A DNA stretch of 64,000 nt, taken from sequence record ON528727. One strand, 5' to 3'. The DNA comes from Shigella phage ESh17. Below, piece after piece: positions 50,836 to 54,049 of this stretch. A program made the position numbers and the translations under genes. Below the pieces are notes generated by a model that saw only the letters and a program-made list of their open reading frames with translations, was not told the DNA's origin and made no database searches. How positions within the stretch are numbered: position 1 is the first letter of the stretch; each line of letters opens with the position of its first letter.

Positions 50836-50865
50836 GTTTACTTTTCCTCTTGACTGTGGTATAAT
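50836..50865 (+). promoter_or_regulatory. early promoter for regB with extended -10
   Basis: GTTTAC, N18, TGGTATAAT; inverted repeat cttgactg/cagttaag. Confidence 0.6.
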
Positions 50866-50892: not shown

Positions 50893-51354
50893 ATGACTAT
50901 CAACACAGAAGTTTTTATCCGTCGAAATAAGCTTCGTCGTCATTTTGAGTCGGAGTTTCGTCAAATTAACAATGAGATTCGTGAGGCATCAAAAGCAGCA
51001 GGGGTCTCATCGTTTCATCTAAAATATTCTCAGCATCTTCTTGATCGTGCAATTCAACGGGAGATTGATGAGACATATGTTTTTGAATTATTCCATAAAA
51101 TAAAAGACCATGTTTTAGAAGTTAATGAATTCCTGAGTATGCCTCCGCGTCCTGACATTGACGAGGATTTTATTGATGGGGTTGAATATCGTCCTGGACG
51201 TTTAGAAATCACAGATGGAAATCTTTGGCTTGGGTTTACAGTTTGTAAACCTAATGCGAAGTTCAAAGACCCGTCGCTTCAATGCAGGATGGCAATTATT
51301 AACAGTCGTCGTTTACCAGGAAAGGCTTCTAAAGCAGTAATTAAAACTCAATGA
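50893..51354 (+). CDS. regB: RegB site-specific endoribonuclease, 153 aa
   Basis: 153 aa; begins MTINTEVFIRRNKLRRHFESEF, matching recalled T4 RegB. Confidence 0.85.
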   Translation: MTINTEVFIRRNKLRRHFESEFRQINNEIREASKAAGVSSFHLKYSQHLLDRAIQREIDETYVFELFHKIKDHVLEVNEFLSMPPRPDIDEDFIDGVEYRPGRLEITDGNLWLGFTVCKPNAKFKDPSLQCRMAIINSRRLPGKASKAVIKTQ

Positions 51355-51361
51355 GGTAAGC

Positions 51362-51907
51362 ATGAGAAAAGCACTACTCGCTGGTCTATTGGCCATTTCA
51401 ATGATGGCACATAGCTCCGAGCATACTTTCAGTAATGTCCAACTCGATAACATGCGTTACGCGTATCAATTCGGGGAACAGTTTTCTAAGGATGGAAAAT
51501 ATAAAACACACAAAAATATCCACAAGAGCGGATTAGGTCATATAATGGCTGCTATTTTATGGCAAGAAAGCTCTGGCGGAGTTAATTTAAAATCTAAACC
51601 AAAGCATCACGCCTACGGAATGTTCCAAAATTATTTGCCTACTATGCGAGCAAGAGTTAAGGAACTTGGTTATAATATGACCGATGCTGAAATAAAAAGA
51701 ATGTTGAATAAACGATCCAATTCAGCTTCCTGGGCGTACATTGAACTTTCTTATTGGTTAAATATACATAAGGGCGATATAAGAAAAGCAATATCCTCTT
51801 ATAATTCGGGATGGAATGTTAAAGCAGGTTCTAAATATGCTTCTGAAGTCCTAGAAAAGGCTAATTACCTTAAAAATAATAAACTTTTGGAAATAGTAAA
51901 TGACTAA
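51362..51907 (+). CDS. secreted protein with signal peptide (vs.1 position), 181 aa
   Basis: N-terminal signal-like hydrophobic segment. Confidence 0.55.
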   Translation: MRKALLAGLLAISMMAHSSEHTFSNVQLDNMRYAYQFGEQFSKDGKYKTHKNIHKSGLGHIMAAILWQESSGGVNLKSKPKHHAYGMFQNYLPTMRARVKELGYNMTDAEIKRMLNKRSNSASWAYIELSYWLNIHKGDIRKAISSYNSGWNVKAGSKYASEVLEKANYLKNNKLLEIVND

Positions 51908-52241
51908 AATTTTGGTTTTATGTATAGGATTAATTTCATTTTCTGCGTTAGCAGATACATCATATACTGAAATTAGAGAGTATGTAAACCGTACTGCAGC
52001 GGATTATTGCGGGAAAAATAAAGCATGCCAAGCTGAATTTGCGCAGAAATTAATATATGCATATAAAGACGGAGAAAGAGATAAATCAAGTAGATACAAA
52101 AACGATACATTATTAAAACGATATGCTAAAAAGTGGAATACCTTAGAATGTTCAGTTGCGGAGGAGAAAGATAAAGCCGCTTGTCATTCAATGGTTGACC
52201 GTTTGGTAGATTCTTATAATCGAGGATTGAGTACTAGATGA
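51900..52241 (+). CDS. small protein with signal peptide (vs position; valyl-tRNA synthetase modifier in T4), 113 aa
   Basis: position and size; signal-like N-terminus. Confidence 0.5.
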   Translation: MTKILVLCIGLISFSALADTSYTEIREYVNRTAADYCGKNKACQAEFAQKLIYAYKDGERDKSSRYKNDTLLKRYAKKWNTLECSVAEEKDKAACHSMVDRLVDSYNRGLSTR

Positions 52242-52717
52242 TTGTAAAATATATCAAGGGCGATATTGTCGCCCTATTTCTTCAAGGTAATATTATTGCG
52301 CACGGGTGCAATTGTTTTCATACTATGGGTTCAGGTGTAGCGGGTCAATTAGCAAGAGCCTATCCCAAAATTTTAGAAATAGATAAAACCACTACTGAGT
52401 ACGGTTCTCGTGATAAATTAGGCGATATGTCTATTGTTTTTAAACATAAACCTAATGGTTTTGGCATATGTTATAACTTGTATACGCAATACGAACCAGG
52501 TCCTAATCTTGATTATGGTGCTTTAGTAAACTGCATGATAGAATTAAATCTACAGGCAGAAACCCTTTTGTTTAAACCGGTAATTTACATTCCACGCATA
52601 GGTTGTGGTATTGCTGGCGGCGATTGGGATAAGGTTTCTAAATTAATCGACATGTTTACTCCTGATATTGATTTAATAGTGGTGGATTATGAAAGTACAT
52701 TACCCGCATCCGTTTGA
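52238..52717 (+). CDS. macro-domain (ADP-ribose binding/processing) protein, 159 aa
   Basis: motifs HGCNCFHTMGSGVAG and IGCGIAGG resemble macro-domain glycine-rich loops. Confidence 0.55.
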   Translation: MIVKYIKGDIVALFLQGNIIAHGCNCFHTMGSGVAGQLARAYPKILEIDKTTTEYGSRDKLGDMSIVFKHKPNGFGICYNLYTQYEPGPNLDYGALVNCMIELNLQAETLLFKPVIYIPRIGCGIAGGDWDKVSKLIDMFTPDIDLIVVDYESTLPASV

Positions 52718-52901
52718 TCCTAAAAACAAAGCAGTAATTATTCGTCAATGGGAACGCATTTGCCGTACTAAATGTCCAATTAATAGTCCACATGATGTAG
52801 ATAAAGACTACATTGGAACATTCGTTGAATATACCTTTATTGATAAGAAAGGTCGTAAACAACATGTAGAAGAATATTGCTTAAAGGTTACATGGTTATG
52901 A
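52689..52901 (+). CDS. hypothetical small protein, 70 aa
   Basis: ORF overlapping neighbours. Confidence 0.4.
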   Translation: MKVHYPHPFDPKNKAVIIRQWERICRTKCPINSPHDVDKDYIGTFVEYTFIDKKGRKQHVEEYCLKVTWL

Positions 52902-53104
52902 GCCAAACTAGTATTCTTAAAAATGCCCACTGTGAAAAGTGTAAGTGGCCTGTTGTTTTTGCTTTATGCAACGATGAAATGGCTTGTGATTTCGATTATT
53001 GGTGCTATTGTTCTAATAAAGGATGCATCAATCATAAAGGTGAAGGATTTTATTCAGGATTTTATCCTTATCCTGATTTCGTTAAAGAAGGTAAACCAAA
53101 ATGA
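52877..53104 (+). CDS. Cys-rich small protein, possible zinc ribbon, 75 aa
   Basis: CEKC ... C ... CxC ... C pattern. Confidence 0.4.
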   Translation: MLKGYMVMSQTSILKNAHCEKCKWPVVFALCNDEMACDFDYWCYCSNKGCINHKGEGFYSGFYPYPDFVKEGKPK

Positions 53105-53286
53105 ATAATTTTGAGTTACAATACGAAGTGTTACGTGAGCTTGATAATTTAATTGAACTCGCTGTTAATAAAGGTTTTGCCATTGGAATCGGTCAAAAAG
53201 ATACTGGTCATTTAACTATGGAAATATTTAAGCAAAAGCGAATTATTTTAAAACTCCTGGAAATTAATATATATGAGTCTGAGTAA
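53101..53286 (+). CDS. small helical protein, 61 aa
   Basis: ATGA-coupled ORF. Confidence 0.4.
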   Translation: MNNFELQYEVLRELDNLIELAVNKGFAIGIGQKDTGHLTMEIFKQKRIILKLLEINIYESE

Positions 53287-53458
53287 AGAACAAAAAGATA
53301 AATTGTTTGAGCTTATCCATGAACTTCTAGATGAGCATATAGAAGCAAACACTTTTTATGATGAATACGGCCCGCTATCTCCAGAACAGCAGGAAGAATT
53401 TGCTGATCGGTTTGATAAGAAAGAAAACGAATTAATAGCTTATGTGAATACGCTTTAA
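53273..53458 (+). CDS. small acidic helical protein, 61 aa
   Basis: ORF; coupled. Confidence 0.4.
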   Translation: MSLSKEQKDKLFELIHELLDEHIEANTFYDEYGPLSPEQQEEFADRFDKKENELIAYVNTL

Positions 53459-53467
53459 GAAGGTGAT

Positions 53468-54049
53468 ATGGCGAGTTTAATTTTTACTTATGCAGCAATG
53501 AATGCTGGAAAATCTGCTTCTCTTTTGACTGCTGCACATAATTATAAAGAACGTGGAATGAGTGTATTAGTTCTTAAGCCTGCTATTGATACTCGCGATT
53601 CTGTCTGCGAAGTCGTTTCTCGCATTGGAATTAAACAGGAAGCGAATATTATTACAGATGATATGGATATTTTTGAGTTCTATAAATGGGCTGAAGCACA
53701 AAAAGATATTCATTGCGTATTTGTAGATGAAGCTCAGTTTTTAAAAACTGAACAGGTGCATCAATTAAGTCGAATTGTTGATACATATAATGTTCCTGTT
53801 ATGGCTTATGGATTAAGGACTGATTTCGCTGGAAAATTATTTGAAGGTTCTAAAGAACTTTTAGCGATTGCAGATAAACTTATTGAACTAAAGGCAGTTT
53901 GTCATTGCGGCAAAAAAGCGATCATGACAGCTCGATTAATGGAAGATGGAACACCAGTTAAAGAAGGTAATCAAATCTGTATTGGTGATGAAATTTATGT
54001 TTCTTTGTGTAGAAAACATTGGAATGAATTAACTAAAAAGCTCGGTTAG
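53468..54049 (+). CDS. tk: thymidine kinase, 193 aa
   Basis: P-loop NAGKSAS; C-terminal Cys zinc motif; 193 aa. Confidence 0.9.
   Translation: MASLIFTYAAMNAGKSASLLTAAHNYKERGMSVLVLKPAIDTRDSVCEVVSRIGIKQEANIITDDMDIFEFYKWAEAQKDIHCVFVDEAQFLKTEQVHQLSRIVDTYNVPVMAYGLRTDFAGKLFEGSKELLAIADKLIELKAVCHCGKKAIMTARLMEDGTPVKEGNQICIGDEIYVSLCRKHWNELTKKLG

Follow-up and report, generated by a model that had tools for sequence, protein, structure and literature searches.

A Short-Loop, Glutamine-Type Macrodomain Protein, Tk.4, of a T-Even Shigella Phage as a Likely Counter-Defence Enzyme against DarTG2

We analyzed a stretch of 64,000 nucleotides of DNA from Shigella phage ESh17 (sequence record ON528727), which we call the window, and focused on one gene at 52238..52717 on the + strand (stop codon included). 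It reads from ATG to TGA as a single open reading frame (ORF) and encodes a single-domain macrodomain protein of 159 amino acids. This gene is tk.4, the syntenic ortholog of the T4 gene tk.4, now called adfM. It most likely serves to counter DarTG2, a toxin-antitoxin system by which the host defends itself. We favor the reading, with a probability of about 0.7, that Tk.4 hydrolytically removes the ADP-ribose that DarT2 installs on thymidines of the phage DNA, and that it does so with an SCO6735-like active site that needs no lysine. A sequence-only reading of the window had already picked out this ORF as a macro-domain protein and proposed that it could reverse ADP-ribose marks set on DNA or proteins by host defences, or else process ADP-ribose-derived signals. 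We confirm the observation and find support for this interpretation, which is already known: the reversal of such marks on DNA agrees with the published role of the syntenic T4 gene, although the identity of the ORF as tk.4 had gone unrecognised. GenBank phage records already label the gene as macro domain, and for the T4 ortholog a function, that of adfM, has been assigned. The finding thus adds no new biology; what it still offers is the mechanistic contrast to DarG, the ambiguity introduced by the related enzyme Adpp, and a second allele beside that of T4.

Results and Discussion

The functional link to DarTG2 comes from genetics in T4. When a T4 transposon library was exposed to a DarTG2-expressing host, tk.4 was the only significant (depleted) gene, and T4 with a clean tk.4 knockout was sensitised to DarTG2, a system whose toxin attaches ADP-ribose to thymidine in DNA; the gene was hence renamed adfM, for anti-DarT factor, Macrodomain (bioRxiv 10.1101/2025.11.20.689424, November 2025). 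According to PMC11257639, AdfA and AdfN act on DarTG1 only and so leave the DarTG2 resistance of T-even phages unexplained, while a sentence of its discussion calls a T-even panel, including phage Bas39, "all DarTG2 resistant". The tk.4/adfM finding fills this gap. DNA ADP-ribosylation by DarT is a widespread anti-phage defence, against which T-evens stack AdfA, AdfN and AdfM; the window gene represents the AdfM layer.

The window is Tequatrovirus (T-even phage) DNA, and the 2.2-kb stretch around tk.4 shares 99.7% identity with Escherichia phage TH09 and 98-99% with many others. The genes, with neighbours assigned by matches to PHROG, run in the order regB (50893-51354), vs.1 (51362-51907), vs (51900-52241), tk.4, tk.3 (52689-52901) and tk (53468-54049), with small ORFs between tk.3 and tk. 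The ORF occupies the slot between vs and tk.3 and is therefore tk.4, which bears out the placement in a vs-tk early block given by the sequence-only reading. T4 Tk.4 sits in the same slot (vs, tk.4, tk.3), is 155 amino acids long against the 159 of the window protein, and matches it with 57% identity over 155 amino acids (E=1e-69), with the invariant residues and a short Q-x-x-PGPN loop in common. Shigella phage A2 encodes an identical protein (100%), gp115, whose annotation reads "macro domain containing protein". The window protein also agrees at 158 of 159 positions with bas39_0234 of the BASEL phage Bas39 (FriedrichMiescher), so a member of the T-even set described as DarTG2-resistant carries this very allele, which supports our reading. 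From the sequence we infer that the window allele, at 57% identity, would do the same job as T4 tk.4.

The assignment as a macrodomain, for which the sequence-only reading had suggested a profile check, is robust. The Pfam profile Macro (PF01661) is matched with 33.1 bits, where the gathering cut-off is 22 bits (E=6.2e-8), over positions 2-117 of its 118, and the PHROG 335 profile ("phosphatase") matches with E=1.8e-71. Database searches gave 775 homologs at E<=1e-5, and tblastn with the window protein found matches in 2773 phage records; the macro-domain match is far beyond chance. An AlphaFold2 model built from an alignment of 59 diverse homologs (mean predicted local distance difference test score, pLDDT, 93.9; predicted template modelling score, pTM, 0.89) displays the three-layer alpha/beta/alpha fold with a central mixed beta-sheet that is typical of macro domains. 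The best Protein Data Bank (PDB) matches of this model in Foldseek were TARG1, Poa1p, BT1257, DarG and SCO6735, led by human TARG1/OARD1 (E=3.6e-10; E=1.7e-16 with the family profile), and a PDB search with the family profile returned at E<=1e-3 ALC1-like proteins only. Both sequence and structure lie nearer to this class than to the MacroD, viral Mac1, PARG or macroH2A classes. Together, the Foldseek and profile matches point to a macrodomain of the ALC1-like class (TARG1, DarG, SCO6735/Bt_1257, Poa1p, ALC1). The macrodomain assignment thus holds by profile, by modelled fold and by residue conservation.

The two glycine-rich motifs on which the sequence-only reading had relied are both present and could be mapped onto known binding sites. 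Loop 1, delimited by conservation and residue mapping, spans amino acids 22-36 (HGCNCFHTMGSGVAG; 52301..52345, + strand), with H22, G23, N25, C26, G33 and A35 invariant. Its N25 (codon 52310-52312) aligns with N22 of DarG, N27 of SCO6735 and N23 of AdfM from phage PhiKZ, positions for which mutational data are available (PMC5179494 for DarG, PMC9411070 for SCO6735 and PMC13309987 for PhiKZ AdfM). Loop 2, the diphosphate-binding glycine-rich loop according to the alignments, comprises amino acids 121-128 (IGCGIAGG; 52598..52621, + strand), and its G122 and G124 are the equivalents of DarG G117 and G119 and of SCO6735 G126 and G128. Both loops thereby align to loops that contact ADP-ribose in solved macrodomains, namely the DarG loop with N22 and G-x-G and the DarG loop with G117/G119/G121. 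Tk.4 is predicted from this alignment to DarG to bind ADP-ribose between the two loops.

The residue that sets this protein apart is Gln84 (codon 52487-52489, CAA), the first residue of a short "mobile loop", Q-Y-E-P-G-P-N-L-D-Y, at amino acids 84-93 (52487..52516, + strand; placed by alignments). Gln84 sits at the column of the catalytic lysine of TARG1 (K84) and DarG (K80) and corresponds to Gln85 of SCO6735. Three independent alignments agree on this placement: hmmsearch with the family profile against TARG1, hhalign against DarG and PhiKZ AdfM (98.7% probability), and MAFFT with eight references. A126 is found opposite the catalytic D125 of TARG1. Gln84, Asp49, Asn80 and Tyr82 are conserved in 121/121 sequences, and Asn25 and His22 in all 119 that cover those columns. 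The geometry of the active site is read here from the alignment to solved homologs. The T4 allele, the window allele and all homologs above ~48% identity have a 10-residue loop with the signature NLYTQ[YF]xPGPNxxY in common, while relatives below ~48% identity carry loops of 12-14 residues; this common short-loop signature supports a functional equivalence of the two T-even alleles. Loop 2 of the window allele (IGCGIAGGDW) is in fact nearer to the family consensus than the copy of T4 itself (IGAGIGKGNW). From its residues the window protein is most aptly called a Gln-type ALC1-like macrodomain with a short loop, and its active site is not of the DarG kind.

A comparison with DarG makes this difference explicit. 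DarG of the DarTG2 system (PDB 5M31, 5M3E, 5M3I, 7OMU) uses the catalytic Lys80 in an FPTK motif, where the window protein has Gln. It also possesses a C-terminal DarT-binding domain and an adjacent darT gene, neither of which is seen in the window, where the 159-amino-acid protein has one domain and the neighbours are vs and tk.3. DarG N22, the second most important residue for turnover, does have a counterpart in N25. The TaqDarG mutant K80A has no activity and fails to rescue cells from DarT (PMC5179494). The NCBIfam DarG equivalog NF048014 reaches 27.7 bits against a cut-off of 250, and the PADLOC DarG profile likewise gives 27.7 bits, covering only the N-terminal 144 of 329 profile positions. 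We therefore reject membership in the DarG family, given the score far under the cut-off and the missing catalytic lysine, second domain and darT neighbour. TARG1/OARD1 (PDB 4J5R/4J5S), which likewise frees DNA of thymidine-ADP-ribose (PMC8501950), employs a Lys84/Asp125 dyad. The window protein has Gln84/Ala126 instead, and the TARG1-type covalent Lys/Asp mechanism via lysyl-ADP-ribose is rejected as well.

By sequence and fold, the best solved relatives are SCO6735 of Streptomyces coelicolor (PDB 5E3B) and Bt_1257 of Bacteroides (PDB 2FG1/2AFC), at ~25-29% identity. They share with the window protein the Gln at the lysine column, the Asn that holds this Gln, an H-x-C-N motif and the PRIGCG-x-AGG-x-W loop, and they are, like the window gene, stand-alone genes without a partner toxin. 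Q84 and N25 of the window protein correspond to Q85 and N27 of SCO6735, the equivalent of G124 is present too, and the protein is in these residues of the Gln type. SCO6735 clears single-stranded DNA of DarT-made thymidine-ADP-ribose faster than DarG or TARG1, leaves guanosine-ADP-ribose untouched and rescues E. coli from DarT; its Q85A mutant is dead, N27S is nearly dead, and a water-mediated mechanism was proposed in which the backbone carbonyl of Val25 positions the catalytic water (PMC9411070). By this precedent the window protein is predicted to hydrolyse thymidine-ADP-ribose but not guanosine-ADP-ribose.

Taken together, tk.4/adfM would encode a stand-alone, single-domain ALC1-like macrodomain hydrolase expressed from the regB-vs-tk block. 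During infection, DarT2 would block replication by ADP-ribosylating the phage DNA, where it is single-stranded, at thymidines of TNTC motifs. Tk.4 would hold the ADP-ribose with its two glycine-rich loops and cleave the C1''-N3(thymine) bond, so that normal DNA is restored. The chemistry is probably of the SCO6735 rather than the DarG/TARG1 type: it would proceed without a catalytic lysine, with the invariant Gln84, held by the invariant Asn25, positioning the distal ribose for attack by water. If so, the label "DarG homolog" used in the preprint would understate a mechanistic difference, since T4-type AdfM has no DarG lysine and is SCO6735-like.

Several points weigh against this reading. Hydrolysis by T4 Tk.4 was itself deduced from structural similarity to DarG alone (bioRxiv 10.1101/2025.11.20.689424), and the window allele is just 57% identical to the genetically tested T4 protein. 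The resistance of Bas39 goes back to one discussion sentence on the T-even set (PMC11257639). At the structural level, the mobile loop of SCO6735 and Bt_1257 is 5-6 residues longer (by about 5 residues also when compared with DarG/TARG1) and bears lysines, and it is this extension that the SCO6735 authors tie to DNA binding; the window protein and T4 Tk.4 do not have the insertion, and QYEPGPNLDY contains no Lys. Where the same authors invoke Val25, the window protein has the family-invariant Gly23, hence neither Val nor Ile, but the role proposed for this residue is one of the backbone and so compatible with Gly. Ser32 occupies the column of DarG K29 and SCO6735 K34 in the MAFFT alignment; PhiKZ AdfM has Ala at this column, yet is active (PMC13309987). 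The residue before the Gln is Thr83, as opposed to Gly in SCO6735 and Bt_1257. Two further objections, a related phosphatase and a form of protection that need not be purely enzymatic, lead to rival explanations.

The first concerns Adpp of Vibrio phage Gary, a purified and assayed ADP-ribose-1''-phosphate phosphatase, which, acting alongside Adps and Namat of NARP1, overcomes aRES, a defence based on an NADase (NARP1-AP; bioRxiv 10.64898/2026.01.28.702374, January 2026). Adpp (gp182, flanked by Adps and Namat) appeared among our tblastn matches and shows 39% identity (E=3e-27) with the window protein. Both proteins have H22, N25, C26, D49, N80, Y82, Q84 and the GCG-x-AGGDW loop, and both belong to PHROG 335 "phosphatase". 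Because Adpp has the same invariants and a different proven substrate, sequence alone does not fix the substrate of Tk.4, which also counts against our assignment. Yeast Poa1p is likewise among the top sequence and fold matches of the window protein; a comparison of Poa1p at H23/S30 draws on PDB entry titles and partial alignments only. Tk.4 might accordingly be imagined, in line with the second option of the sequence-only reading, as mainly an Adpp/Poa1p-like phosphatase that turns ADP-ribose-1''-phosphate, the product of RES-type NADases in the aRES defence, into ADP-ribose, with DNA de-ADP-ribosylation secondary or absent.

We consider this improbable. The anti-defence effect of Adpp is lost on inactivating any of the three NARP1-AP genes (bioRxiv 10.64898/2026.01.28.702374), while a search for Adps and Namat found neither in the window nor in the complete genome of Bas39, which carries the same tk.4 allele; a role in NARP1-AP is rejected for this reason. 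The Namat-bearing Escherichia phages among the sampled matches belong to other genera, with no T-evens among them. Moreover, Gary Adpp has 7 more residues in the loop after the Gln, and its Gln follows a G in place of T; the window protein falls together with T4 Tk.4, the ortholog whose sole known phenotype concerns DarTG2. A phosphatase side activity of the window protein is quite plausible all the same; ADP-ribose-1''-phosphate phosphatase activity is predicted for it by homology to Gary Adpp only.

Both activities could also reside in a dual-purpose enzyme, in which one site would cleave any C1'' substituent of ADP-ribose and would act on DarT2-made thymidine-ADP-ribose as well as on ADP-ribose-1''-phosphate. 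We regard this as a tentative possibility, unlikely on balance. If true, tk.4 would be a lysine-independent DNA ADP-ribosylglycohydrolase without the DNA-binding loop of SCO6735, and its two diverged alleles would reflect an arms race, for example with bound DarT2 variants or host inhibitors.

Protection without catalysis is the next rival, either by direct binding and inhibition of DarT2 or by a sponge effect on an ADP-ribose-derived molecule. The dead Q85A mutant of SCO6735 still inhibits DarT in vitro by binding, more so than DarG K80A or TARG1 K84A (PMC9411070), so protection need not be purely enzymatic, a further point against hydrolysis as the sole explanation. Full-length DarG K80A also inhibits DarT (PMC5179494). 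Between the two tk.4 alleles the surface residues are diversified and the core is conserved, which would fit a protein-protein arms race. On the other side, the catalytic residues of SCO6735 (Gln, Asn, Gly loop) are invariant in relatives at 39-100% identity, which argues for enzymatic selection, and the DarT-binding C-terminal domain of DarG is missing from the one-domain window protein of 159 amino acids. We give very little credence to a purely non-catalytic role; by analogy, Tk.4-type proteins would act by hydrolysis and not by DarT2 binding.

The marks that are removed could finally be on protein or RNA instead of DNA, placed there by ADP-ribosyltransferase toxins of the host or by the phage's own Alt, ModA and ModB, as the first option of the sequence-only reading would allow. 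T-evens with this allele do encode Alt, Alt2, ModA and ModB, as annotated in Bas39, and proteins with Glu/Asp-linked ADP-ribose are further substrates of SCO6735 and TARG1 (PMC9411070). When DNA and protein compete, though, SCO6735 has a strong preference for DNA (PMC9411070), and the Lys84/Asp125 dyad that TARG1 uses for protein substrates is missing in the window protein. The reduction of tk.4 reads was specific to the DarTG2 host (bioRxiv 10.1101/2025.11.20.689424); we found no report that loss of tk.4 matters on plain E. coli K-12. This alternative therefore appears doubtful in high degree, and removal of ADP-ribose from DNA thymidines remains our preferred reading.

The name AdfM itself needs care. 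PhiKZ gp104, independently named AdfM, removes thymidine-ADP-ribose from DNA in vitro and counters DarTG2 (PMC13309987, Cell Rep 2026); its N23 matters, and the protein is imported into the phage nucleus (PMC13309987). Like the window protein it is a stand-alone phage macrodomain of PHROG 335, but unlike it, PhiKZ AdfM is of the DarG-like Lys type (FPTKDNW). The pairwise BLASTP similarity is marginal, with 27% identity over 33 amino acids at E=0.001, and we reject an equivalence of the two proteins, which are separate lineages under a common name. AdfM thus designates two unrelated macrodomain lineages, the Gln-type T4 Tk.4 and the Lys-type, DarG-like PhiKZ gp104, and both of them fall, together with Gary Adpp, into PHROG 335 "phosphatase". 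With two AdfM lineages and an Adpp of different proven substrate in one PHROG, the transfer of annotations such as "phosphatase", "Poa1p-like" or "DarG-like" is unreliable. Phage records name the gene variously as phosphatase, Poa1p-like, macro domain protein or hypothetical; similarity to Gary Adpp and Poa1p is the source of the first two labels.

A comparison of the window with T4 DNA shows that tk.4 is a swapped allele. Identity is 95-100% in regB, vs.1, vs, tk.3 and tk but drops to 48-78% within tk.4 (~52300-52700). The first 51 nucleotides of the gene are identical in both phages, and divergence begins just past a conserved hairpin. Accessory and anti-defence loci of phages typically show such cassette-like exchange of alleles. 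The window-type allele, at >=95% protein identity, occurs in 278 records; for the T4/T2-type allele, 221 records reach >=95% identity and 159 lie at 80-90%. Sequenced phages carry the two alleles with roughly the same frequency, so that natural T-evens have two 57%-identical forms, of which the T4 type alone was genetically tested. Owing to the 4-residue longer C-terminus of the window allele, tk.4 and tk.3 overlap by 29 nucleotides in the window (52689-52717, in different frames) as compared with 4 nucleotides in T4. The complete Bas39 genome contains exactly one macrodomain gene and no second one.

Outside the T-evens, the one bacterial relative that we examined lies by itself on the chromosome amid housekeeping genes and has no DarT neighbour, and the other relatives sit in large phage genomes; this distribution offers no support for an "orphan antitoxin" origin from a DarTG operon. 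In an uncultured large phage (contig of about 200 kb, L005/L007 1541-1888), the Tk.4-family homolog P0094 lies ~4 kb from a gene with a match to Pfam Acb5 (anti-CBASS), in a region among nucleotide-metabolism genes. The proximity hints at a possible clustering of counter-defence genes.

Regarding expression, direct sequence reading of the translation start region (52222..52241, + strand) reveals a Shine-Dalgarno-like GAGGA at 52222-52226 ahead of the tk.4 ATG at 52238. The start codon overlaps the vs stop codon as ATGA, which suggests translational coupling of tk.4 to vs. The best sigma-70-like match to a + strand promoter, TTTACT-17-TATAAT with TG, lies just 5' of regB (50837..50865, + strand) and is likely the start of a co-directional regB-vs.1-vs-tk.4 transcription unit; it is a consensus match only, and such a match alone is no evidence, as the scan gave 14 sites against 18.9 expected from shuffled sequence. 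No convincing dedicated promoter for tk.4 was seen, with only weak 9/12 matches on the + strand between vs.1 and tk.4. Given the ATGA overlap with vs, tk.4 is most simply regarded as part of a co-directional regB-to-tk unit.

A scan for terminator-like elements and folding revealed a stable hairpin inside tk.4 codons 7-13 (52257..52275, + strand; AGGGCGAUAUUGUCGCCCU, followed by AUUUCUU), with a stem of 8 bp, a folding energy of -12.9 kcal/mol and z = -3.19. By alignment it is the same in T4 and Bas39, and record OL631480.1 annotates it as "rho-independent terminator". The hairpin may serve attenuation or stabilisation of the transcript, or may merely mark the edge of the recombination cassette.

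A second replaced patch, ~30% identical to T4, lies 3' of tk.4 at 52900-53460. It holds three small ORFs: a Cys-rich one with Pfam Phage_zn_bind PF23895 (52892-53104), one of PHROG 3452 with no Pfam match (53101-53286) and one with DUF7438 (53273-53458). The T4 counterpart has two PHROG 653 ORFs at this place. These variable small ORFs beside tk.4 could be further accessory or anti-defence genes. On the other flank, Vs (MTKILVLCIGLISFSALA|D) and Vs.1 (MRKALLAGLLAISMMAHS) both have signal-peptide-like N-termini, and a lytic transglycosylase domain of the SLT type is present in Vs.1 (Pfam, 25.1 bits). For Vs, whose annotation is that of a modifier of the cytoplasmic valyl-tRNA synthetase, one would not expect a secretion signal; vs was the most depleted gene in minimal medium (HIDEN-SEQ preprint).

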